Shown: piece by piece, positions 1,216-61,055 of the stretch
Layout: every line of letters begins with the position of its first letter
Numbering within the stretch: position 1 is the stretch's first letter
Assembly (NCBI GenBank): GCA_963833985.1
Contig: CAWIAD010000002.1
Coordinates: 2,944,001 to 3,008,000, forward strand
Source: an uncultured Planctomycetaceae bacterium
GTDB lineage: Bacteria > Planctomycetota > Planctomycetia > Isosphaerales > Isosphaeraceae
Reading direction: 5' to 3'
DNA: 64,000 bases
Program-made: the position numbers and the translations under genes
The notes under the pieces: generated by a model
The model's database searches: none
The model's input: the letters and a program-made list of their open reading frames with translations, nothing else
Told to the model about the DNA's origin: nothing

Positions 1216-1701
1216 TCAGGGCGCCTGGCAGCCCTGCTTCGCGAGGTACTGGTCCTTCCTGGGCTCAAACTCGCAGCGGATCCGGCAGCTGTTGACATCC
1301 AGCTCCTCCAGGATATCCAACACCTCGTCCATCTCGCTGCGCGAGAACACTTCCTGTGCCCACAAGATGATGTCCAGGTTTTCTTTGAGAACCTTGAGGC
1401 GGTCGAGGATGGGATTGATCAGGGGAGACGTGCGGAAGCGGCGCTGGAGCAGCCCGAAATCCTCCTTCTGCAACTCGATCCAGCAAGTTTTTCCCTGGAG
1501 ATGCTCGATCCAGCGCTGGCGCAGGAAGCCGTTCCAGTGGTGAAGCACCCAAAGCTTGATCGCACTTTCCCCGAGGTCGCGCCCTTCCTTCTCACTCTGG
1601 ATCCACTTGAATCGCTGAGCCTCTTCCTGGCCGTACCGCTGAAGGCTCATCTCCGTTTCGGGGAAGGTCTCAATGAATTGTCCGGACAAGGTGGAGAGCA
1701 T
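1216..1701 (-). CDS. Hypothetical protein resembling a conserved planctomycete family (FKWIQSEKEGRDLGE motif)
   Basis: ATG at 1701 preceded by GGGAGGA; protein-like composition. Confidence 0.7.
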   Translation of the reverse strand: MLSTLSGQFIETFPETEMSLQRYGQEEAQRFKWIQSEKEGRDLGESAIKLWVLHHWNGFLRQRWIEHLQGKTCWIELQKEDFGLLQRRFRTSPLINPILDRLKVLKENLDIILWAQEVFSRSEMDEVLDILEELDVNSCRIRCEFEPRKDQYLAKQGCQAP

Positions 1702-2119
1702 CGAGTCCTCCCGGCAAGAAGGCGGCTCAAGTCCTTGAGATCTCGTGGCTGCCACGTGGTGCCTCAGGACACGCAAGGGCCTCAATCTTCAACAAGCATG
1801 CCATGAGTCTTTTTTACTCGAAATTGTCGCGCCGTGTCAGGGGTGTGTAACATTTTTCTAGATTAGTCGATTTCTTAAACGTGGCTGACTGTACCAGTGA
1901 GCACACCGGTAGTCAAATCTCGGCTCACGTCGTTCCGCATCAGTCCACGGATGAGTGAAGCCCTTGTTGATCCCCTAACCCAATTATAGGAAGCGGGAGA
2001 GCAAGAGGGACACCACAATCACAGGTCCAGTGTGAAGTTGACGGGGGCGGCCATCCATCCGTGCGAGCCGGATTGGCGAGGACTTCCTGATCCGATTACA
2101 TGCTTGCGCTGCTCCTGAA

Positions 2120-4144
2120 TCACTCTCGGGGTGCACGAGCTTCTCCCGCCCCGAACCAGGCCAGCGACCGGCCCATCATGATGGCGACACCGGCGGGGCC
2201 GGCCGCGAAGGGGCCAAGAGGGACCTCGCTCACGGCCCGCCACCGGACACGGCCATCCAGGGTTGCACAGATCAGGTGGACCTCGCGCCGGCTGATCCGC
2301 ACCGGCTCACCGTGCTCGTCCACGGTGAACAGATCGCTGGAATTGCCGCTTGCGGGGCCTTCGAAGCGGGTCTTGCCGGAGCCATCGACGGCCTGGACCC
2401 GACCGTCGGCCGAAGCCACCACTGCGAACCGTCCCAGCCTGGCCAGCGACCATCCCTCGAAGGCGATCTGCCGGGTCCAGACGGCCTTGCCGCTTGCATC
2501 ATGGCCGCTGAGTTGCTGCGACCTGCGGGACACTGTCAGCCAGGTCACTTTGCTCGGCGAATCGTCCGGTGCCTCGATGAGCAGCGGGGGATCCGCCGGA
2601 TCGAAGGTCGCGCCGACGCTCGGCTCGCCGGCGGGGTCGAAGACCAGGAGCTGTCCCTCGCTCGTGGTGACGGCCGCGGAGCCTTCAGGGCCGATCGCCA
2701 CGTCCTCCACAGCGCTGCGGAGTTCCCGCTTCCAGACCCAGCGGGACGAGGGAGTGACCCTGCCGATCCGGTCTCGCTCCTGCACCAGGATCAGCCCGAA
2801 CGTATCCGGGCGAATCGCCAGGTGGGTCAGTTCAACAAGGCTCAAATCCAGCTTCTGCTGTGTCTTACGCCGCAAGTCGCAGAGCAGGATCTGGCGGTCA
2901 GTCGCTGCCGCCAGCCAGCCTGGCGCGGTTCGCAAAATGCGCCCGACGCCGGACATCTGCGGACCCTGTCCCAGCCTCTCTCCGGTGACCGAGTGGATCT
3001 CCAGGCGATGAGGGCTTGTGAACGAGGCCACGCAGGGCGGCTCATCGGCCACGATAAGCACCGCTGTTTCGGCCTGCTCGTCCGAGGCGACGATGGGCGC
3101 CGTCCAGTCCGGCTGGCGGACCGAGCCTGTCGCCGTTCGCGTCCCCGTGCGTGCAGGGCGCCCCTCGGTTTTTCGCTTCGCGGCACCGGTGCGGGGAAGG
3201 TCTGGCTCCGCAGTCGGACCAGGACCGAACAGGTCCAGCCGGATGATCTCGCCCGTGGAGTGCCCATAAACCACGTAACGACCCAGCGGATCGATCTCCA
3301 GGGCGATCGCCGGCCGGGACAGACGCGTCTTCCAGCGCACGTTGCCGGCCGAGCTCATGATGGCCAGCTCGCCTTCCAGGGTTGCAGCCGCGATGGTCCG
3401 GCCCGGAAAGTCCGGGACCGCGTGCGAGACCGTCCCGCCCAGGTGATACGAGCCCTCGCTCCGGCCCTTGAGGTCGAACCGTTGAATTCCATGGGTGAAG
3501 CAACTGGCAAGGATCATGGCTCCGTCGCCACTGGTTGTCAGCCGGCCCACGTTCGACATGAGGCGGTCCTGCCAGACGATCTCGGGTTCCAGCCGGCCAG
3601 AACCGTGCGATGCCAGGACTTCCAGCCCGATCAGCATCCCGAACGCCGCGGCGCCGACCAGGAATGGGCGATCGGCCAGGAAGCAGAGGTGGGCCAGCGG
3701 TTGAATGGTCTCCAGGCGCCCCGCCGACCGGCCGTAGCGGTTGAGGAAAGTCACGGCTCCCAGCCGGCTGCCGATCGCGATGTAGCGCCCGTGGGGATCG
3801 ATGGTCACCAGCGCCGGATCGCTGGGCGCCTGCTTCTCCACGGTCACGTCGAAATCCGCACTGAGCAGCAGCAGGCCGCCTTCGTCGGCCTCTCCCACCA
3901 GGGCTATGAGCGAACCTTCATCGCTGATGGCCCCGTGGGCGATCTTCTGGGGAAGTCGTGAAAAGGAGAGCGATTCGCCTTGGGCGTTCAGCAGGTAGAG
4001 CTGGTTGCCCTCGTCCCAGGCGAGTATCCGGCCCGCCTCGCGCGCGAACGCCAAACCCTTGAGCGGCGACTCCGTGACCATGGTCCAGGCCGTCACTGGA
4101 TCCAGCCGGCTTCCGGTTCTGTCACTCATCTCGGGCATCTGCAA
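2120..4144 (-). CDS. WD40/PQQ-like beta-propeller repeat protein (two propeller halves joined by a basic linker)
   Basis: Repeated blade-like segments (IDPHGRYIAIG, IDPLGRYVVYG, WKRELRSAVEDVAIGPEG). Confidence 0.7.
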   Translation of the reverse strand: MQMPEMSDRTGSRLDPVTAWTMVTESPLKGLAFAREAGRILAWDEGNQLYLLNAQGESLSFSRLPQKIAHGAISDEGSLIALVGEADEGGLLLLSADFDVTVEKQAPSDPALVTIDPHGRYIAIGSRLGAVTFLNRYGRSAGRLETIQPLAHLCFLADRPFLVGAAAFGMLIGLEVLASHGSGRLEPEIVWQDRLMSNVGRLTTSGDGAMILASCFTHGIQRFDLKGRSEGSYHLGGTVSHAVPDFPGRTIAAATLEGELAIMSSAGNVRWKTRLSRPAIALEIDPLGRYVVYGHSTGEIIRLDLFGPGPTAEPDLPRTGAAKRKTEGRPARTGTRTATGSVRQPDWTAPIVASDEQAETAVLIVADEPPCVASFTSPHRLEIHSVTGERLGQGPQMSGVGRILRTAPGWLAAATDRQILLCDLRRKTQQKLDLSLVELTHLAIRPDTFGLILVQERDRIGRVTPSSRWVWKRELRSAVEDVAIGPEGSAAVTTSEGQLLVFDPAGEPSVGATFDPADPPLLIEAPDDSPSKVTWLTVSRRSQQLSGHDASGKAVWTRQIAFEGWSLARLGRFAVVASADGRVQAVDGSGKTRFEGPASGNSSDLFTVDEHGEPVRISRREVHLICATLDGRVRWRAVSEVPLGPFAAGPAGVAIMMGRSLAWFGAGEARAPRE

Positions 4145-4242: not shown

Positions 4243-6879
4243 TTACAGATACCCCAGATGTCTGCGCCACCAGGCACCAAAGGGGACGGAGAGGACCGCG
4301 GCGAGGATCATGCTCATCATCCCTTGCGAGCCGCCCTCGGTGAAGCCGTAGCTGTGCAGGCCCACGCCCAGCACGAAATTCACGCCATACAGGCACATCA
4401 CCACCGACAGGAAGCAAATGACCGACGCCTGGGTCAGGCCGAAGGTGTTCACCCAGCCGGCAAACCGGCCGTGCAGCGGAACCAGGTAGACCAGCAGCGT
4501 GATCAGAGCCCACACCTCTTTTGGATCCCAGCCCCAGAAACGGCCCCATGAGTAATCAGCCCAGACGCCGCCCAGGATGGTCCCGGCGGCGATCAGCAGC
4601 ACGCCGACCTGCATGGCCCTGTAAACGAAGTTGGCCAGCGGCTTGATGATCAGCGCCGTCTCCTGCATGGCTCGCCCCCGGGCGTCGAGCTGCGCCGGTG
4701 CGGCCACCGCGCGCACGCGGTCGGCGGCGTCCAGAGATTCAGGAGGGGTCGGCGCGTGAACTCCCGGAGCAGGACTGGCGACAGGCTGAGATTCCTCGCT
4801 GTCGTCGTTCAGCTCATTGTCGTCCTCGCCGTTGCCGTTGCCGTGAAGAGCATCGCGGAACTTCACACGATTCACGAGCTCGCCGGCCATGGCCAGCAGC
4901 GCGCCCAGCGACACCAGCCCGCCCGCTCCGGCCATGATCGCGAAGACGTAGAAGAGGAGGTCGCCGGTGACCCACTGCGTGCCGAACGCGCCGTACGAAG
5001 CGGCCACGCCCAGGGTGCCGGCAGCCAGCAAGGGAAGGCCGGGAACCATCGGCAAGGCCACTTCGCCCAGGCTCGGAGTGCGGCGATAGGTGGCCGTGAG
5101 GTAATAGGCCATGGCAATCAACCCCAGCGCGCAGGCCAGGCCAAACGCGGCATAGCTGGAGACTTCGGTCAGAACGTGGATGGTGAGCCAGAAGTTGCTC
5201 CGCAGCACCGGCTGCAAGCTCTTGATGCTGGGGTCGAGCAGAGGGACGTTCACCGCCGTGATCGTGCCCAGAAGCGCCACGCCAGCCCCGGCCAGGGCCG
5301 TGTAGGTACGGCGGAAGATGAGCTCGAAGACGAACGCGAGCGTGGCCGCCACCAGCGCCACCCAGATGACGACCTCGTACATGTTGGTCACCGGCGCCCA
5401 GCCCGAGATCTGGATCCGCAGCATGAAGCCGTAGACCTCCAGCGCGATGCCCGTCGCCAGGGCCAGCATGCCCAGCGGGTAGAAGCCCTGACCCAGCAAG
5501 CCGGTGAACGACTTGCGTCCCGCCGTGAAGCCCAGGCTGATGGTCAAGAGGAGCAAGGCGGTGCCGTAGGCAATGGGCGCCTGCCAGAACGGGTTCATCG
5601 TATTGAAGTGTGTCTCTCGCTCGATGGCCGCCAGGCTGGGATACTTCCGGGGGTTCACGGCCTCGCCAAGTTGTCGCGACGTGGAGAGAATCGCGTCGGC
5701 GGCCGGCTGCGCAAGCTGGCCCGGATAGTTCCGTTCGGCGAGCTCCAGCGCGTGGTAGGCAGAACGGAATGCCGCCACCTCGTCCGCCGGATAACCGGCC
5801 GACTGAAGATCCTGGTCGCTGGCCTTGAGCAAGACCTTGAGCGGCACCCAGGCCGAGTTGTCGCGCAGCCAGTCGGCAAACTTCTCATCGAGCTTCGCAT
5901 TCTCGCCCGGAGGCACGCGCTCTGCCTGGGGAGTGTCGTTCCAGTAGGTATCCAGCGCCTTGAGCGTATCGAACTCGATGGGGGCCAGCTCGCGCAGGTT
6001 CTCGGTCTTGCGTGCTTTCTTGATCACCTCGGCGATATAGCCCAGGGCCTTGAAGCTGAATGGCCGGGGCATCACGCGCACCAGCCCGGCGGAGCGCATC
6101 TCATCGCCGCTGTAGGCCTTGTAGGTCATCAAGCGGCGCCCGGCATCGATGGCCCGGCGCTCGACCTCGGTGAGCCGCTCGGCCGTGGCCGGGCTGGCAT
6201 CAAACTTCTGCTTCTGCTCTTCCAGGCCGGCCACCCAGTCCATGAAGGGAAGGGGCTCGCCGTTCCGAGAAATCCTGGCGTCTTCCAGCTCACGGGGGGG
6301 CAGCCACTTGGGCTCCTCGCCGAGCCTGGCGGCCAGTTCGGCGACAGCCCTGCGATCGGCCTCGGCAAGCGAGCAGCTCTTGAGGTAAGCCGTGAGGGAG
6401 GCGGTGGTCGGATCCTCGGGGCTTTCGGCCAGCCGCGCCAGCCCCGTACGGTCGGCCGCGCTGGTCGATTCCCTGGCGGCGATGTCCTTGAGCCGTGACC
6501 GGGTGGAGCCGGCCAGGATCAGCTTGCGCAACGGCCAGTAATCGACCAGGACGAACGGCTGGTCGTCCCAGAATTCGGGACGGACCATCCAGTCGAAGAA
6601 CGCGGCGACCGGGCCCCAGGTCTCGACGACGGTGCTGGCCGCGTCGTGAAGCTTGATCGTTTCGCGGCCGAAGACGTGCTTGACCTCCTCGCGGGCCACC
6701 GTGTCCAGCGGCTTGACGCGGCCCGCGTGCATCACGGCCAGCTTGCCGAGCTGCTCGTAGGCCGGGGTTTGGCCCAGCACCTTCGCCCTGGGTTCCTCAC
6801 CGCGGGCAGGCAAGGCTGCCTGCGAGAGACCTGCAAGGACCAGACAAAGTCCCACGGATCGCGTGATCGATTGCGTCAT
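4243..6879 (-). CDS. ccsA: Cytochrome c biogenesis protein CcsA/ResC (System II) with long periplasmic N-terminal domain
   Basis: WWD motif WADYSWGRFWGWDPKEVW, WLTIHV, GLHSYG, APVTNMYE, GRVKPLDT; N-terminal signal-like segment. Confidence 0.93.
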   Translation of the reverse strand: MTQSITRSVGLCLVLAGLSQAALPARGEEPRAKVLGQTPAYEQLGKLAVMHAGRVKPLDTVAREEVKHVFGRETIKLHDAASTVVETWGPVAAFFDWMVRPEFWDDQPFVLVDYWPLRKLILAGSTRSRLKDIAARESTSAADRTGLARLAESPEDPTTASLTAYLKSCSLAEADRRAVAELAARLGEEPKWLPPRELEDARISRNGEPLPFMDWVAGLEEQKQKFDASPATAERLTEVERRAIDAGRRLMTYKAYSGDEMRSAGLVRVMPRPFSFKALGYIAEVIKKARKTENLRELAPIEFDTLKALDTYWNDTPQAERVPPGENAKLDEKFADWLRDNSAWVPLKVLLKASDQDLQSAGYPADEVAAFRSAYHALELAERNYPGQLAQPAADAILSTSRQLGEAVNPRKYPSLAAIERETHFNTMNPFWQAPIAYGTALLLLTISLGFTAGRKSFTGLLGQGFYPLGMLALATGIALEVYGFMLRIQISGWAPVTNMYEVVIWVALVAATLAFVFELIFRRTYTALAGAGVALLGTITAVNVPLLDPSIKSLQPVLRSNFWLTIHVLTEVSSYAAFGLACALGLIAMAYYLTATYRRTPSLGEVALPMVPGLPLLAAGTLGVAASYGAFGTQWVTGDLLFYVFAIMAGAGGLVSLGALLAMAGELVNRVKFRDALHGNGNGEDDNELNDDSEESQPVASPAPGVHAPTPPESLDAADRVRAVAAPAQLDARGRAMQETALIIKPLANFVYRAMQVGVLLIAAGTILGGVWADYSWGRFWGWDPKEVWALITLLVYLVPLHGRFAGWVNTFGLTQASVICFLSVVMCLYGVNFVLGVGLHSYGFTEGGSQGMMSMILAAVLSVPFGAWWRRHLGYL

Positions 6880-6997
6880 ATCGATTCTCCAGGCTTACGC
6901 GGCTTTGCCTCGGTGTCTGTGATCAGGATCGAAGGGCTCACCCTCGATTCGCGCTCCACTTCCACTTGCGGAACACGCGGTCCTACGCTTTGAGCAG

Positions 6998-9178
6998 TCA
7001 CAATCGCTCGTCCTCGAAGACCTTCCCATCCATCCTGGGAGTTGAGCCGGTACCGACGGTGTTTCCCGCGCGGGCGGCCCGCTCGCGTTCTTTCCGGCCG
7101 CCGTCGGTGAAGACCCCGGCCCGCATGTAGAACTGCGTGAAGATGCCCAGCACCAGGATCACGCAGCCCGCGTACTTGATGGGCCGGCCGGGATCGATGC
7201 CCACCTGGAGCACCGACTGGAACTGCCCGGTGCGCTGGCCGGTGTCCGGGTCTTGCATGGCCGAGTAGCGCATCTGGTAAAACGAGTACCCGTCGTGAGA
7301 GAGCGGGTTGTTCATGGAGATCACGTGGGGCCGATCCTTGATGCCCTCGGCCGGGTCGGAAAGCCGGACGTTGCTGACGAACTTGGTCGCTTGCTCGGTT
7401 CCCGGCTCGAACGCGACCTCGAACTTGTCCAGCTTCAGATCAAAACCCATCGGCCGGCGGTCCACGTCGTAGGCGATCTCGAAGAGCCGATCGCCGAACG
7501 GCACGGGCTTGAAGGATGGGCCTGCTGGCGACTCGCTGCGCTGGATCCAGATCTCACGTGTGACGCCGCCGACGGTCATCTCGATCAGGCTGGCGGGAAC
7601 GGCCTCCTCCATCTGGTTCTTGGGCAAGAAGAGGGGCTCGAAGATCTGTTTTTCCACGCCCGCGGGCAGGTAGTCGTCCACGAGAAAGCTGATCGTCATG
7701 GGCATATTGGCACCGCCACCGAAGGCAGCGATGGGCTTGTCCGGCACGACGGTCCCCGAGGATCGCAATTCCGTCTTGCCGTCCTTCCCCCGGCCGAAGA
7801 CGCGGTAGTAGAGCGAGTGGTCCGGTCCGGCCAGCACCTCGATCTGACCGAAGCGGCCGTTGGTGCGCGGGTCGATCACCGGCGGGACCATGAGGTGAAT
7901 CGACACCAGCGGCACCGGTGGTCTGGCCTCGGGTTCACGCGGGTTCGGCATCACGTTGGGCACCATCGGCAGTGAACCCATGGCGAAATGCTCGACCTCC
8001 GGCCCGTTCCCCTTCCGCACCTGGAACATTCCCACCGGCATGGACGGTTCCCCGAGCACCCCGGAGAGCCCTCCTTCGCTGGTGGGAAACTCGGCGAGCT
8101 TCTCGACTTTCACGGTCAGGTCGCTCCCTGGCAACTGGACCGACTTGCCTTCCTGACCTTCCATCGCCAGGTCGAAGACGCCAGTTTGCCCATCCGACTT
8201 CTGATAACGGAACCGGGCCACGCCGCTTGAGCCTGCGCCCTGTGGAGGCCTGAGGAAGTCCTCGACAAGTTCGGGCCGGTCGACGTATGAGAACGCCAGC
8301 AGGGCCGGGTTGACGTCGCGGGCCGCGCGGTAGAACCGCCGATCCAGCTTGAACCACTGGTCTTTCTCCAGCGGCAGCGCCTCGCGAGCCTGTGGCATGC
8401 CGGGCGCCTTGAACTGGAGCCGGATCCGGGCCATCGGCTGGCCCGCGGGATCAGCCTGGTGCAGCACAGCGGCCGTGGAGGCCGGCAAGTGTTTGCGCAC
8501 CGCCAGGGTGAAGGGATCACCGGGCTGACTGAGCAATTCACCAGTACGTGAGGGCGCCGGAAACCTGCCGCCGGAAACCGCGTTCAGGGCAATGTCCAGA
8601 AGAGTGCGCAGGTGCGGCTCGCCTTCTCCCCAGGGGAAGGGGCCGGGCTGAAAGTGCATCTCGTAAGACGGTCCCGGCTCCTGGGTGTGCGGGTCGAGCT
8701 CGCGGACCCGGATCACCGGATCGTTGCGGCGGACCAGCTCGGAGCGCGTCTCGCCCTCCAGCATCGCCACGAACCCTTCGTCGGCGGTGCGCATGCTCCA
8801 GTAGGAACCGAAGATCAGCACCAGCAGCCCCGCGTGCGTGATGACAAAGCCCGTTTGCCGCTTCTTCCAGGGAAAGCGAATGAGCGCCGCAGAGAGGATA
8901 TTGACCGCCAGGAATGCCAGCAGCAGGGCGAACCAGGTGCTGCGGTACACATAGTCCTGGGCCGCGGAGGTTCCATGGCTGGACTCGATGAAGGTTGCGA
9001 ACGCGAGCGAGGCGGCCAGCGTCAGCAGGCTGAAGACGGCCAGTTTCAGCGAGGCGAGAAACCGGTAGATCGCGTCAATGCCGCGTAAGAGCGGATGAAC
9101 CAGCAAGCTTGAAGCGGGAGCCGGGTTGCCAGCCCGGCTCGATGCGGCAGCGGACGCCTTCTTCGTGGCAATCGCCAT
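6998..9178 (-). CDS. ccsB: Cytochrome c biogenesis protein ResB/CcsB
   Basis: FLASLKLAV TM start, GFVITHAGLLVL (conserved His), ISMNNPLSHDGYSFYQ, DPGRPIKYAG; adjacent to ccsA. Confidence 0.85.
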   Translation of the reverse strand: MAIATKKASAAASSRAGNPAPASSLLVHPLLRGIDAIYRFLASLKLAVFSLLTLAASLAFATFIESSHGTSAAQDYVYRSTWFALLLAFLAVNILSAALIRFPWKKRQTGFVITHAGLLVLIFGSYWSMRTADEGFVAMLEGETRSELVRRNDPVIRVRELDPHTQEPGPSYEMHFQPGPFPWGEGEPHLRTLLDIALNAVSGGRFPAPSRTGELLSQPGDPFTLAVRKHLPASTAAVLHQADPAGQPMARIRLQFKAPGMPQAREALPLEKDQWFKLDRRFYRAARDVNPALLAFSYVDRPELVEDFLRPPQGAGSSGVARFRYQKSDGQTGVFDLAMEGQEGKSVQLPGSDLTVKVEKLAEFPTSEGGLSGVLGEPSMPVGMFQVRKGNGPEVEHFAMGSLPMVPNVMPNPREPEARPPVPLVSIHLMVPPVIDPRTNGRFGQIEVLAGPDHSLYYRVFGRGKDGKTELRSSGTVVPDKPIAAFGGGANMPMTISFLVDDYLPAGVEKQIFEPLFLPKNQMEEAVPASLIEMTVGGVTREIWIQRSESPAGPSFKPVPFGDRLFEIAYDVDRRPMGFDLKLDKFEVAFEPGTEQATKFVSNVRLSDPAEGIKDRPHVISMNNPLSHDGYSFYQMRYSAMQDPDTGQRTGQFQSVLQVGIDPGRPIKYAGCVILVLGIFTQFYMRAGVFTDGGRKERERAARAGNTVGTGSTPRMDGKVFEDERL

Positions 9179-9382
9179 GGTCTCTCACCTGCACAGGAGG
9201 GACATCGCGCCGATGCGGAAGCTGGCGGGCGGGATTCGGTCCGCATCAGTGTCGCGAGGGAACATTGGGATTCTATCCGTGGGAGCCGCCCGGAACCAGA
9301 CTTGCCGGCCCGATTGAACAGTCCGACGGCTTGACATCGAGGCTCGGAGGGCGACTTTCCGCGGCAGCAGGCGGCAGCCTCC

Positions 9383-10402
9383 TTACCAGGTACGGAAGGC
9401 CGTGTGGCATCCCACGCACGAGGCATCCAGCCGGCGCGCTGCGCCCAGCAGGGCCAGCCGATCGCCGTTCCTGGCCGCCTCGCCAAGGTCGATGGCCGCC
9501 AGTCTCATCTTCGCCGCATGGAAGAGCCAGACTTCGCGATCACGGCCCGAGTCGATCCCGGCGGTCTGCTCGGCCACCCACTGAAACGTACGTGCGAGCG
9601 CTTCGACCTGTTCGGCCGAACAAGCCGCTCCCTGGTCGCTTTCCAGAGTCCGGAGCCGGTCGCGGGCGTCCCCGGCACCCGGAGAAGCCAGCGTGAGCGA
9701 CTGCATGACCTGACGCATCGAGCAGTGTGCTGCCTCGGCCTCGTGGCCCGAATGGCTGATCCGCGAGAACGCCAATCCGGCCGCGACGGCACCGAGAAAC
9801 GCGATCAAGCCACATCTGGCCAAACGCTGACGGAGCATGGAGCGGGCGCGCTCGAGCCGGCGCGACATCGTTCCGGCCGGCCATCCAAGCTGACGCGCGG
9901 CCTCCTGGTTGGTCTTGCCTTCCAGGTAGCAGAGGACCACGGGTGCACGGTATTTCTCGGGAAGCTGGCCGAGCGCCGTGCGGACGACTCGCCGCAGCTC
10001 GCTGCGTTCCAGGCCATCGTCCGGCTGGTCGAGCGGATGATAGCAGTCCGGGATCAGGCCGCCGGGTTCACCGCTTCGCCCCGGGCTGAGCGCCGTGGCG
10101 GGCCGCTCGAGTCGAGCGCGACGGCCAAGGCCGGCGCGTGTGTGCAGGACAAGCCGCCGAGCGACCGAGCAGAGCCAGCGGTCGACCGAGCCATTCCAGG
10201 AGATGTCGGCCGCCTTGTCGGCCAGGACAAAGAACGTCGCCTGAAAGACGTCCTCCGCGTCGTGCTCGCTGGCCAGCCCGCGCCGGCAGACCCGGCGCAC
10301 CTGGGGGCCATGCCTCCTTACCAGTTCGCCGAACGCCGCCTCGTCCCGCTGGTTCGCAAACCGCTGGAGCAGCAGCGCATCACTGACCGGTTCGGTCACC
10401 AA
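9383..10402 (-). CDS. ECF sigma-70 factor with TM helix and C-terminal cytochrome c'-like (class II) CxxCH domain
   Basis: sigma2 DAEDVFQATF, sigma4 LPEKYRAPVVLCYLEG...GTMSRRL; hydrophobic GLIAFLGAVAAGLAF; C-terminal ASCVGCHTAFR (CxxCH at 9404-9418); start TTG 10402 or GTG 10399 after GGGAGG. Confidence 0.85.
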   Translation of the reverse strand: MVTEPVSDALLLQRFANQRDEAAFGELVRRHGPQVRRVCRRGLASEHDAEDVFQATFFVLADKAADISWNGSVDRWLCSVARRLVLHTRAGLGRRARLERPATALSPGRSGEPGGLIPDCYHPLDQPDDGLERSELRRVVRTALGQLPEKYRAPVVLCYLEGKTNQEAARQLGWPAGTMSRRLERARSMLRQRLARCGLIAFLGAVAAGLAFSRISHSGHEAEAAHCSMRQVMQSLTLASPGAGDARDRLRTLESDQGAACSAEQVEALARTFQWVAEQTAGIDSGRDREVWLFHAAKMRLAAIDLGEAARNGDRLALLGAARRLDASCVGCHTAFRTW

Positions 10403-10681
10403 GTCCGCGTCCTCCCGGAAGCCCCCGTGCCTCCTCCCTATTATGCCCGGAAAGGCCGCGTTGAAATGCACGAATCTGCCGGAAATGACGTCAGCCTCAA
10501 TGGAAAGAGCCGGTGGTTACCCTTCGAGGACCGCGATCAAGCGGTACTGGCGGCGAAAAGGCGCAGCCAGGTCATGCACCGAAACTCTTTTTCACAATGT
10601 ATTTACGTGTCGAGCACCGAAGCGGCGGGAGTTCGCCGGGGGAACATCCGGAATGCTCCTGCGCGGGGGCGAGAGGCTTCT

Positions 10682-11590
10682 TCAGGACATCTGGAGCACC
10701 TGGTTCATCCGCCGGACAACGTCTTTCATCGTCGCCAGGTCGCCCAGGCCGACCTCGGCCGTGATCCAGCCTTCATAGCCGATGTCCACGAGCGCCTGGT
10801 GGACAGCCTGCCAGTCGATCTCGCCTTCGCCCAGCTTGTAATCGAAGCGTCTGGGCTTGGCGTACTCCTTGATGTGGATCTTGAGGATGCGCTTGCCCAG
10901 CTCGCGGATCCACTCCTCGGGGTAACCGTACTCGACAACGTTGCCGACGTCGAAGTACGCGCCGACGGTGGGTGTACCGAACTCGTCGATGTAACGCGTG
11001 AACTCGACGGGGCTGAGCAGGAACCGGTTCCACACCTCCTCGATCGCGATTTTCACACCGGCGGCTTCAGCCAGGGGAATCAGCTTGCGGATATTCTGCT
11101 GCGAACGGGTGTAGGCGTCGCGGTAGGAGACCTTCCGGTTCACGACGGCTGGCACCACCAGGACCGTGGTCCCACCGTAGGCCTTGCAATCCTGAAACGC
11201 TTGCTCGATGGCGGCCATGCCCCGTTCGACGACCCGGGGGTCAGGGTCAGAGAGCGGTTCCCGCCAGTGCCTGGAGCCGCTCACGCCGTGAATGACCAGG
11301 CCCGTCTTCTCACGCGCGGCGAGGACTTCCTTGATGTCGAGCTGGTTGGGGCTGAGCAGTTCCACGCCCTGGAACCCGGCCTCCTTGAGGAGCTGGAAGG
11401 CAGGCAGGACGGGTCCCTTCGAGACATCACCAAGCATGAACGCCTTGTGCCAGCGGCCGCCACCGGGACTGGAGGCCGGCTGAACCCCGGGACTGGAGGC
11501 CGGCTGAGCCCGAAGGATTCCAGGCAGCAGAGCGCCCGTCACGACGGCGGCGCCTGCATTCACGAACGACCTGCGGTCGATGCCGACCAT
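10682..11590 (-). CDS. Sugar-phosphate isomerase/epimerase (xylose-isomerase-like TIM barrel), Tat-exported
   Basis: DRRSFV Tat motif; IAIEEVWNRFL, YFDVGN, IHIKEY, WITAEV metal-ligand motifs. Confidence 0.85.
   Translation of the reverse strand: MVGIDRRSFVNAGAAVVTGALLPGILRAQPASSPGVQPASSPGGGRWHKAFMLGDVSKGPVLPAFQLLKEAGFQGVELLSPNQLDIKEVLAAREKTGLVIHGVSGSRHWREPLSDPDPRVVERGMAAIEQAFQDCKAYGGTTVLVVPAVVNRKVSYRDAYTRSQQNIRKLIPLAEAAGVKIAIEEVWNRFLLSPVEFTRYIDEFGTPTVGAYFDVGNVVEYGYPEEWIRELGKRILKIHIKEYAKPRRFDYKLGEGEIDWQAVHQALVDIGYEGWITAEVGLGDLATMKDVVRRMNQVLQMS
11463..11507. repeat. In-frame tandem duplication (21-bp unit, 24-bp period) encoding QPASSPG twice
   Basis: ccgggactggaggccggctga at 11463-11483 and 11487-11507. 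Confidence 0.85.
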
Positions 11591-58727: not shown

Positions 58728-58979
58728 TGGGTATCTCGGCGCGTCGGCCGGATGGCAGAGTCGAGTGTATCCGAGAACAATACCAGATCCGGCGCGGGAT
58801 CGTCAATTCCGCGGCTCACCCGCAGGCCGAGCACGGCCCGTACGCCCGCACGGGAACTCCCGTGCCATCTGGACCGGTGGCGGCCTTTCAGAAACTGGTC
58901 GTCCTGCGCATTTTCCTGGATTGGTCCTGGCCCGGGTTGCACTAAGCTGGGTAGAAAACCAGAAATGCGAGGGCGGCCA

Positions 58980-61055
58980 ATGGGTAATGTCGACCGAGCG
59001 GTCTTGCTGAAGCAGATGGACCGGCTCCATCGCGACGGGACGTACACCCACCAGAGCGACTCGCAGCTCCTCGACCGCTACCTGCGGTCGCGCGATGAAG
59101 GGGCGTTCGAGGCGATCGTTCAGCTGCACGGTCCCCTGGTGCTGGCCCTCTGCCGGCGCTTCCTGCGTGATCCGCGGGACATCGAGGACGCCTTCCAGGC
59201 CACATTCCTGATCCTGGCCCGGAAGGCCGGGTCGATCCGTGACCGCGCCGTCCTCTCGAGCTGGATTTACGGAGTGGCCTACCGGGTTGCGGTCCGTGCC
59301 CGGGCCGACGTGCTCAGGCGGCGGTCGCTCGAAATGGGCGTTCCGCTCCTGGATGATTTCTCCGCCGCGGTCTTGCCCGAGCCCGACGAGACCGGGCTGT
59401 TGCTCGATCAGGAGCTGAACCGCCTGCCGGAGAAGTACCGCGCACCGATTGTCCTGTGCTATCTCAACGAGCAGACCCACGACCAGGCGGCCGCGGCGCT
59501 GGCCTGTCCGGTGGGAACCGTGCGCAGCCGGCTGGCGCGAGGCCGTGCGCTGCTCAAGGAGCGGCTGGCGCGCCGGGGTTGTACACAGGCCGCGCCCCTG
59601 CTGGGCCTGACGCCTGGGATCTCCATCCGGTCATTGACGACGGCCGTGCCAGAGCCGCTGGTGCGGGCGACGGTCGCGGCCGCGGCTCGGGCCCTGGAGA
59701 TGACAGGCACTGGAGTTCGCCCGGCCTTGCTCTCTCTCATCAGTTCCGGATCTCCTTCTCTCTCCGGGTCGGCCACGACCCTGGCTCAAGGAGTGCTCAC
59801 GACCATGGCAGTGACTCAGATGAAGATCATCGCGGCAGGACTGACGACGGCGGGCCTGCTCGCCGGCGGGCTCTCCGCCGGCGCATTCGCGCTGGGATCG
59901 TCGGGGCCGGGCCAGCAGGATGCGCAGCCCGTGCCGGCTCAAAAGACCGCGCCGAGGACCTCCGTGCCGCCGGCCACGCCAACTCCCGAGCTTGACATGA
60001 TCCCCGCCGCCAGGCCGCCGGTGTCCGTTCCTGGTCCGGGCCCTGGTGCGTCCGGCGTGGAAACACGGCTGGCCGAGCTGGAACGCAAGCTGGACCTGTT
60101 GCTCGAGCGAATGGGTCGGCCGCAAGCCCCCGCGGCCGGGGCGCAAGACCTCGTTTTCCCCTTTCGAACTCACGGAGTCGTTCCGAATGAGCCCCCCCCG
60201 GTTTCTGCGGTCCCGAGCGTGAATCCTCCTGACTCCGCGCCGCTTCAAGGGCCGCAAACGCAAGGGCCGCAAACGCAACTTCCTCCGGCTCGTGCTGAGG
60301 ATCTCGGCCCGTCCGACGTAGTTGCCCCGGCAGTCGCCCAGCGGCAGTTGCCGCCTGTGCCGGTCGTTCTGCCGATGCCCGCCACGTTCGATCAACTCAC
60401 TGGCCTGCCGAATCCGCCACCGCCGCCTCAAGACGCATTGAATAATCTTCCACTGCTAGAAAGGAGAGTCCCAGCGCTGCCCAGGGGAAACGATGTGTTG
60501 GGGATGATGGATTCCGGGCATTCGTCGCTCCGGGAAGTCAATGCGCAGCTTGATATCGCGGTGGCGCATTTCCGGAGAAGCAAGCAGCTTCTTGACGTTG
60601 GAGCCATCGACCGCGAGGCTTATCAGAAGTGTCTGGATGACATCCGGCTGCTGATGGCCAAGCTTCAGGGGATGGGTGAGGACCTGTCCGACGAACTCGT
60701 GCGGCTGAAGATCGAGCTGCTCAAGAAGCAGGCCGAGCTCAAGCTCGCCGACAGTCAACGGGCCTCGACAGCCAGGACCGCGGCAAGCACGAAGAAGATG
60801 GCAGAGAAAAAAGTGGTCAGCCCGGACGAGGCAGCCCATGCCATGGATGATCTTGGCGCCGCCGAGGCTCGGGTTGTGATCCAGCGCACCGAGGTTCAAC
60901 TGGCCGAGATGCGCATGGAGCAAGTCGAACGGCGCAAGCAGGCGATCTTGCAGGATCTCAGCGAAGTCCTGAGGATCCCGGAACTCAAGCAGGAGCTTGG
61001 CGTCCGGCGTCGGACTGCCGAGCCGGATCAGTCCAGGACTGGTCCCACCTCGTAG
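58980..61055 (+). CDS. ECF sigma factor with long C-terminal extension (TM, Pro-rich linker, coiled coil)
   Basis: DIEDAFQATFLILARKAGSIR, LPEKYRAPIVLCYL, GTVRSRLARGR; TM IIAAGLTTAGLLAGGL; helical HlyD-like tail. Confidence 0.9.
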   Translation: MGNVDRAVLLKQMDRLHRDGTYTHQSDSQLLDRYLRSRDEGAFEAIVQLHGPLVLALCRRFLRDPRDIEDAFQATFLILARKAGSIRDRAVLSSWIYGVAYRVAVRARADVLRRRSLEMGVPLLDDFSAAVLPEPDETGLLLDQELNRLPEKYRAPIVLCYLNEQTHDQAAAALACPVGTVRSRLARGRALLKERLARRGCTQAAPLLGLTPGISIRSLTTAVPEPLVRATVAAAARALEMTGTGVRPALLSLISSGSPSLSGSATTLAQGVLTTMAVTQMKIIAAGLTTAGLLAGGLSAGAFALGSSGPGQQDAQPVPAQKTAPRTSVPPATPTPELDMIPAARPPVSVPGPGPGASGVETRLAELERKLDLLLERMGRPQAPAAGAQDLVFPFRTHGVVPNEPPPVSAVPSVNPPDSAPLQGPQTQGPQTQLPPARAEDLGPSDVVAPAVAQRQLPPVPVVLPMPATFDQLTGLPNPPPPPQDALNNLPLLERRVPALPRGNDVLGMMDSGHSSLREVNAQLDIAVAHFRRSKQLLDVGAIDREAYQKCLDDIRLLMAKLQGMGEDLSDELVRLKIELLKKQAELKLADSQRASTARTAASTKKMAEKKVVSPDEAAHAMDDLGAAEARVVIQRTEVQLAEMRMEQVERRKQAILQDLSEVLRIPELKQELGVRRRTAEPDQSRTGPTS
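60246..60278. repeat. 15-bp in-frame tandem repeat (QGPQT x2)
   Basis: caagggccgcaaacg caagggccgcaaacg caa. Confidence 0.8.

Follow-up and report, generated by a model that had tools for sequence, protein, structure and literature searches.

A membrane-tethered planctomycete sigma factor with a predicted outer class II cytochrome c domain, encoded beside System II cytochrome c maturation genes: a possible reporter of haem attachment

ECF57 is a group of planctomycete sigma factors of the extracytoplasmic function (ECF) type that are anchored in the membrane and whose release from it has been proposed (PMC7826278), and in IutY of Pseudomonas putida (ECF243) cleavage by Prc and RseP frees the sigma factor (PMC5411451). 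Here we compare with these systems a gene from a stretch of 64,000 nucleotides (the window; positions 2,944,001 to 3,008,000 of contig CAWIAD010000002.1, assembly GCA_963833985.1) of an uncultured planctomycete of the Isosphaeraceae, in which a single chain links an ECF57-like sigma factor through one membrane helix to a class II cytochrome c-like domain, directly upstream of the System II cytochrome c maturation genes resB/ccsB and ccsA. We conclude that this fusion is real, conserved and apparently undescribed, a variant among the membrane-anchored sigma factors of ECF57-like kind that is repeatedly linked to System II. Numbers prefixed G, L and C are our handles for genomes, loci and contigs; aa denotes amino acids. 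The parts of the locus are as follows.

9383..10402, minus strand: gene for the fusion of an ECF57-like sigma, a membrane helix and a class II cytochrome c; 339 aa, starting with TTG at 10402
10136..10324, minus strand: sigma region 2 (aa 27-89), holding the conserved Cys39; PF04542 (Sigma70_r2), E 1.8e-10
9833..9991, minus strand: sigma region 4 (aa 138-190), holding the conserved Cys158; PF08281 (Sigma70_r4_2), E 4.7e-15
9764..9814, minus strand: single predicted transmembrane helix (aa 197-213), Kyte-Doolittle 19-mer 1.95; N-in, C-out predicted
9386..9760, minus strand: domain of four helices resembling class II cytochrome c (aa 215-339), predicted to lie outside the cytoplasm, from PF01322, model and fold searches
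9404..9418, minus strand: CxxCH haem-attachment motif C329, C332, H333 on helix 4 (model helix 315-337), from the sequence
9704..9706, minus strand: Met233 in helix 1, candidate distal (sixth) haem ligand, from the alignment
6998..9178, minus strand: System II cytochrome c maturation gene, resB/ccsB-like, 726 aa; PF05140, E 4.5e-22; single copy (tblastn)
4243..6879, minus strand: ccsA/resC-like cytochrome c synthase gene, 878 aa; PF01578, E 1.8e-24; TIGR03144, E 4.6e-44, below the TIGR03144 cut-off

The fusion shares with ECF57 its planctomycete host, a Cys in both sigma2 and sigma4, an extension with a membrane segment and the lack of a separate anti-sigma gene (PMC7826278, PMC8999054). It departs from the group in having a single membrane segment, and so lacks the ECF57 trait of about two helices; in its extension, a short class II cytochrome c rather than a WD40 or homeodomain-like one; and in a conserved resB-ccsA neighbour together with a conserved upstream motif, where the available ECF57 description reports no motif. 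Neither ResB nor PF01322 is mentioned in the available ECF57 supplement text of PMC7826278. Like IutY, the fusion is a single polypeptide made of a sigma factor, one membrane helix and a domain on the periplasmic side (predicted here), and its cleavage is proposed by analogy; IutY has a FecR-type anti-sigma domain and takes its signal from a TonB-dependent receptor, whereas the outer domain of the fusion carries CxxCH and no receptor gene is linked to it. That domain resembles, by weak but consistent matches, cytochrome c', c556, Kusta0087 (NaxLS, PDB 6r6n) and the b562 fold in being, as modelled, a four-helix bundle with CxxCH on the last helix, but unlike the soluble exported carriers and gas binders of class II it is tethered to a transcription factor, and its distal residue varies between lineages. 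With the c-haem sensors GSU0582/GSU0935, DcrA and sCache_heme (PMC12889525) it shares covalent haem c outside the membrane (predicted here) and a cytoplasmic output; those sensors differ in their PAS/Cache fold, in their MCP, kinase or cyclase outputs and in having no maturase link, and the word sigma is absent from the available main text of that paper. The available main text of PMC7671368 does not contain the word cytochrome, and its Supplementary File 18 tabulates Cytochrom_C_2 among the Pfam matches of planctomycete extensions. Literature titles and the beginnings of abstracts yielded no description of a sigma-cytochrome c fusion; surveys of planctomycete ECF factors could mention the group. 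To our knowledge, no sigma factor with a covalent-haem domain and no dedicated sensor of cytochrome c maturation capacity has been described.

The first-pass annotation of the window, made from the letters alone, had described one reading frame with sigma2, sigma4, a single transmembrane helix and a helical C-terminal domain ending in CxxCH, and Pfam, hydropathy and sequence all agree with that description. Both sigma domains score above their Pfam cut-offs, TIGR02937 reaches 90.6 bits against a cut-off of 42.9, and no region 3 sigma family is among the protein's Pfam and TIGR matches; having sigma2 and sigma4 without sigma3, the protein is classed by these matches as an ECF (group 4 sigma70) factor. 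The Cys pair represented here by C39 and C158 is found across the fusion copies in 42 of 44 cases for sigma2 and in all 44 for sigma4, and the C-terminus reads ASCVGCHTAFRTW. A start at 10471, giving a longer frame, was rejected: its first codons coincide with a conserved promoter-like motif, which makes 10402 the likelier start. By tblastn, the genome holds 51 sigma matches to the fusion protein, and an in-frame CxxCH occurs in only one of them, the fusion itself. Close full-length matches are titled Isosphaeraceae, Planctomycetales, Gemmatales or Planctomycetota, and Atlas taxa also support a planctomycete origin. The string GSMSRRL was considered as a marker of the fusions and discarded, being common to many non-cytochrome ECF factors. 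The same window encodes another ECF57-like sigma factor with a long extension and no CxxCH (58752-61055, plus strand).

Hydropathy predicts a topology with the sigma factor inside and the cytochrome outside. In the structural model a helix at residues 178-216 makes the membrane helix continuous with the last helix of sigma4, and a hydrophobic 19-mer scoring at least 1.6 follows sigma4 directly in 56 of 59 distinct fusions. A later hydrophobic segment is present in none of the 59, versus a second segment in all 28 non-cytochrome relatives that share the sigma4 motif. The earlier proposal of a membrane-tethered sigma factor with an outer sensor domain therefore holds as a prediction, with one segment and the domain outside.

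AlphaFold2 models the outer domain as a helical bundle (pLDDT 87.5; full-length protein, pLDDT 86.5 and pTM 0.42), with long helices at domain residues 4-24, 49-67, 75-98 and 101-123; a further helix, at 32-46, is short and broken. Searched with a family profile, c', cb562 and Kusta0087 give weak matches (best E 0.0075) that rank after two designed helical proteins, and ESM Atlas features place the domain at 0.92 to the PF01322 / Cytochrome C' clusters. Profile, fold and Atlas matches, taken with the CxxCH on the last helix, agree in assigning the domain to class II cytochromes c, as first suggested for the last 125 residues; the matches are weak, with Pfam just below its cut-off, but point the same way. 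Four residues are invariant over 57 aligned relatives, W292, C329, C332 and H333, a count biased for CxxCH since the query contained the motif.

The fusion gene, resB and ccsA all lie on the minus strand, with a gap of 204 bp (9179-9382) between the fusion and resB, close to the 200 bp first estimated. Both maturation genes are single-copy in the genome by tblastn. The second PF01578 match is a 311-aa reading frame adjoining the glutamyl-tRNA reductase gene; a short CcsA-family gene of this genome (G000) directly before hemA, at C2:793272-793685 (L275:5222-6154), is HemX-like by context. With one copy of each maturation gene and no CcmE found in an assembly that is 96% complete, ResB-CcsA would be the only c-type maturase of this genome.

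A representative search returned 91 proteins, which with two others made 93 rows; 44 showed sigma similarity, and 43 of these carried CxxCH. Since a query holding the haem motif biases such a count, the survey was redone from ResB, which matched in 70 of 74 genomes of the family. A sigma gene of this kind lies directly upstream of resB in 32 of the 70, spread over 12 genera, and 31 of these 32 copies carry CxxCH; the exception, G006, shows a 5' fragment at the locus, while its fuller copy is found on a short contig. Among the 31 are the copies of six genomes from genus g253, in which the domain is shortened and lacks the Met but keeps CxxCH.

The linkage recurs in a second lineage with another arrangement of the System II genes. 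In G746 a lipoprotein gene comes next after the fusion, and then a ResB gene running into CcsA-like sequence (PF05140, E 1e-22), and this fused ResB-CcsA of the second lineage is about 30% alike to the ResB of the window. Such a gene stands downstream of the fusion at three loci, with a lipoprotein gene between in G746 and L318 and directly in L292. The intervening lipoprotein-like gene has no Pfam match (L274:2153-3223 and L318:880-1869, both minus strand) and is possibly a System II accessory factor. At a further locus, L202, from a record titled Gemmatales, the fusion sits where the contig ends. An in-frame fusion occurs in 14 of 55 metagenome stretches, seven with resB-type genes downstream and six with at most 300 nt readable there; L304 and L343 are identical in sequence in this set, and L292 and L318 are those with the fused ResB-CcsA type. 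Conserved synteny with System II thus extends over two lineages, in 32 of 70 family genomes plus the three fused loci, and CxxCH is conserved with it; among the four contrary results that the first-pass annotation had named, those open to sequence analysis did not appear.

In a tree built from sigma2 and sigma4 only, the fusions form one clade with an SH-aLRT of 99, in a quick IQ-TREE run with SH-aLRT as the only support measure, on 91 rows comprising 41 fusions, left from 44 once three near-duplicates had been removed, and 50 of the 80 other ECF factors. The clade includes two frameshifted copies with CxxCH in another frame. Since the fusions form a single clade, the fusion probably arose once. 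They nest among planctomycete ECF factors that bear extensions. A phylum-wide search found stand-alone cytochromes and other ECF factors only, with a profile that held sigma4 and 12 candidates per genome, and so has little bearing on range. A neighbouring ECF clade with the motif WPEGSMSRRL (L296, L299-L302, L307, L309-L311, L320, L322, L327, L332, L333, L335, L341) has two hydrophobic segments, a short low-complexity tail and some Cys-rich ends, and no known outer domain was seen in it.

Two promoter-like motifs bear on how the locus might be expressed.

10441..10469, minus strand: candidate autoregulated ECF promoter, GCATTT (10464-10469), 17 bp, GCATAA (10441-10446), from motif conservation
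9270..9299, minus strand: separate promoter-like motif of resB, CTGG-N20-TAGAAT, conserved across loci

The bipartite motif before the sigma gene (GCATYY-N16/17-GCAT; consensus TGCATYYG...GCATAAT) occurs about 35-45 nt before the start at 39 of 42 loci, counted with the pattern GCAT-N18/19-CAT after one faulty extraction was dropped (the misses are L124, L013 and L071), and under a looser pattern in 15 of 15 further loci from both lineages, some of them duplicated. It is rare before other ECF genes, at 1 of 41 other sigma matches of the genome and 3 of 74 other planctomycete ECF loci, in windows of 130 nt, which may be too short to include the -35 where a paralogue has a longer N terminus. The second box reads GCAATA in three genomes with unlinked fusions (G570, G585 and G617) and in L325. 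The sixth base of CATAAT varies, unlike a housekeeping -10, which favours reading the motif as an ECF promoter, probably an autoregulated one. Genome-wide, GCATYY-N17/18-CATNA is not enriched (70 sites versus 65-117 for other spacings), and a pattern scan of the genome found no other convincing target, as would fit a regulon consisting of the sigma-resB-ccsA operon alone. A wider regulon was rejected, pattern scans of the relatives returning noise, with two look-alikes in G517 that have neither sigma nor resB nearby. Between the sigma stop codon and resB no terminator-like site was found in 33 of 34 loci, nor in the window, which fits autoregulated read-through into resB-ccsA, and in 13 of 28 loci no more than 60 nt separate the stop codon from the resB motif. 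Many of some 40 ECF paralogues of G000 show upstream, by eye, an A-tract, a variable -35-like box (GAAC, GAAA, GTAT, GCAA) and CA(C/T/G)TA about 17 bp later, a layout that suggests paralogue-specific autoregulated promoters family-wide.

We give an even chance to the reading, drawn from sequence, that the fusion is a built-in test substrate reporting how well haem is being attached. The fuller proposal, that it is a one-protein feedback controller in which the sigma factor carries a test substrate of CcsBA, is freed when haem attachment fails and raises the maturase operon, we put tentatively at somewhat under even. The single helix would place the cytochrome domain outside, where ResB-CcsA would attach haem to CxxCH, and a stable haem-bound bundle would keep the sigma factor tethered. 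The apo form of class II cytochromes is looser than the holo form. Under a shortage of haem, reductant or maturase, the loose apo domain could be trimmed and an intramembrane site-2 protease could free the sigma factor, as in IutY; the genome does hold M50 and S41 protease genes, weak support given that they are near-universal. Free sigma factor would bind GCATYY-N17-GCATAA before its own gene and express sigma-resB-ccsA by read-through, on top of the resB promoter; more maturase would then restore the haem-bound form and close a negative loop. If this is true, the fusion would be the first case of a transcription factor that takes successful covalent attachment of haem as its signal, and the cell would sense and boost its own capacity for such attachment. 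With one gene, one motif, one predicted promoter and one predicted target operon, the fusion is a small, testable case from which the many uncharacterised ECF factors anchored in planctomycete membranes would gain a first example with a concrete input and output, and it could serve as a genetic reporter of CcsBA activity.

Several observations weigh against this reading of the fusion as a haem-attachment reporter. Some concern the protein. On the last 125 aa, Cytochrom_C_2 (PF01322) scores E 5e-5 and 24.7 bits, under the gathering cut-off of 26.5; the top four Foldseek rows are all cytochromes c' at E 0.011 or worse, with none at E 0.001 or better; and the best VIA-align match, Kusta0087 (6r6n_A; Z 11.8, rmsd 2.7, 104 aligned), ties in Z with CyanoQ and lies under the level separating helical bundles, so that fold alone does not decide class II identity. 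The sequence before the membrane helix is more basic than that after it in 57 of 59 fusions, which is weak and non-independent evidence of topology because the basic residues belong to the DNA-binding helix.

Others concern distribution. No sigma gene stands before resB in 35 of the 70 family genomes (in one, G543, only 1.5 kb was visible; in three more the contig ends), and cytochrome c maturation therefore does not need the sigma factor. The 32 linked genomes are kin and probably reflect one event, and in another order of the class just 2 of 251 genomes were found with the fusion at full stringency, with eight candidates scored per genome and none added by a pattern search. An intact fusion lies away from resB, among oxidoreductase and glycosidase genes, in G570, G585 and G617, and L325 has no resB-type gene within 4.5 kb downstream. 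In the source genus the fusion is lost in G003, partly deleted in G011 and a fragment at the locus in G006, and in L344 it is frameshifted, although some of these lost or damaged copies may be assembly errors; together with its absence from half of the family, they mark the fusion as dispensable.

The remaining points concern expression. The available ECF57 description states that promoters of the group as a whole are not conserved (PMC7826278). The GCAT repeats, at 22-23 bp, could bind another regulator. The resB motif, CTGG-N20-TA(G/C/A)AAT, occurs at 37 of 43 loci with the sigma gene and also at 17 of 38 without it, and because it is independent of the sigma factor's presence, feedback, if it occurs, would boost expression rather than chiefly drive it. 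The idea that the fusion feeds back on ccsBA, already raised in the first-pass annotation, thus keeps a candidate autoregulated promoter and a terminator-free path into resB, but has against it a resB motif that does without the sigma factor and a link absent in 35 of 70 genomes. CTGG was also considered as a genome-wide -35 for TAGAAT/TACAAT and rejected: of 1258 sites only 19 have it at the offset in question, where the background is about 1%.

The best-surviving alternative, though in our judgement rather unlikely, is that a constitutively haem-loaded domain senses periplasmic redox state or a gas (NO, CO, O2) through Met233 moving on and off the iron, with the same operon as output. Domains of c-haem sensors that bind NO or follow redox state are known in chemoreceptors and Cache_heme receptors (PMC12889525). 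In the fusions W292 is invariant, Met233 is kept in 47 of 57 aligned rows, and stand-alone planctomycete relatives, judged by eye, keep a Met in the same helix motif. Both Met residues of the string MRQVM had been offered as sixth ligands; M233 stands as a candidate, and M229 was rejected, being conserved in 2 of 57 rows only. M233 aligns with residue 32 of 6r6n_A (Kusta0087), 16 of 1cgo (Alcaligenes c'), 7 of b562 and 12 of 1s05 (c556), in a register taken from the ends of the VIA aligned ranges on the assumption of a gap-free helix 1, and the c' chains 1a7v and 6a3k align less simply. Residues 7 of b562 and 12 of c556 we take to be distal ligand positions, and PDB titles record a mutated Cys32 in Kusta0087 (6r6n, 6r6o) and an L16 mutant series in Alcaligenes c', at the positions matching M233. 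A Met at the distal site need not ligate, as with Met16 of R. molischianum c', and a ligating one would block gas unless labile. With Met as the distal residue in most copies, the distal position looks more c556-like than like c' proper; since helix 1 is moreover degenerate in several lineages, binding of NO or CO, as first suggested, is less favoured. Of 41 copies taken from genomes just 24 keep Met233, and several lineages have a degenerate helix 1, or none, and still retain CxxCH. The loss of this second Met in about 40% of genome copies that keep CxxCH favours, at the level of sequence, a reporter of haem attachment over a tuned gas sensor, and because CxxCH is kept where helix 1 and the Met are gone or the domain is shortened, the attachment site appears to be under stronger selection than the distal pocket.

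We consider it unlikely that the fusion is no more than a client, co-expressed with the maturase while its sigma factor regulates other genes or itself, to no useful effect on the maturase. Such a gene would sit comfortably with a resB motif present regardless of the sigma factor, with the intact unlinked copies that persist in three genomes and L325, and with L182 and L184, where cytochrome genes adjoin resB without a sigma gene. However, with a terminator-like site absent from nearly all loci, transcription from an activated sigma promoter would continue into resB; no further set of targets was seen; and the linkage recurs with a different layout of the System II genes. Weaker by far, and very improbable, is a fortuitous fusion in which a duplicated sigma gene, inserted into or ahead of a secreted cytochrome gene beside resB, captured it and the haem domain has no function. 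Such an origin was proposed for planctomycete ECF extensions by Pinto and da Fonseca (PMC7671368); the class has many secreted, stand-alone relatives of the domain, and in the source genus copies are decaying. But the fusions make up a single old clade that spans two lineages and retains CxxCH although overall identity is 40-60%, and no stand-alone class II cytochrome, a candidate ancestral neighbour that we rejected, was seen before resB in the 35 sigma-less genomes, so that this account may explain origin but not maintenance and is largely refuted as a full one.

Stand-alone secreted class II cytochromes of 150-300 aa, with a helix-1 Met followed by GGxG and a C-terminal CxxCH, are widespread in planctomycetes and are the likely source of the fused domain. 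They were seen in several of L096-L115 and L276-L282, some with lipoprotein-like signals and long Gly-Pro tails, and three are encoded in G000 (C1:3054090-3054923, C1:3219663-3220118 and C2:3424435-3424998).

One further gene of the window is a frequent upstream neighbour of the fusion, to which we assign no role.

10682..11590, minus strand: xylose-isomerase-like TIM-barrel gene; PF01261, E 6.1e-42, and synteny

In G442 (L191:924-2093) excisionase-like HTH and PIN-like genes, recognised by eye, are inserted between the TIM-barrel gene and the sigma gene, and the promoter motif is intact. Where the sigma gene is absent, the commonest upstream neighbour of resB is a DUF3754 gene (L153-L156, L157, L160-L162, L164, L165, L168, L169, L171, L174, L176, L179 and L183); in G517, with the order TIM barrel, DUF3754, resB, it occupies the slot filled elsewhere by the sigma gene. 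After ccsA the window holds a beta-propeller-like gene (2120-4144, minus strand) and a 189-aa gene without a Pfam match (1216-1785, minus strand), and this order is kept in G009 and G011.

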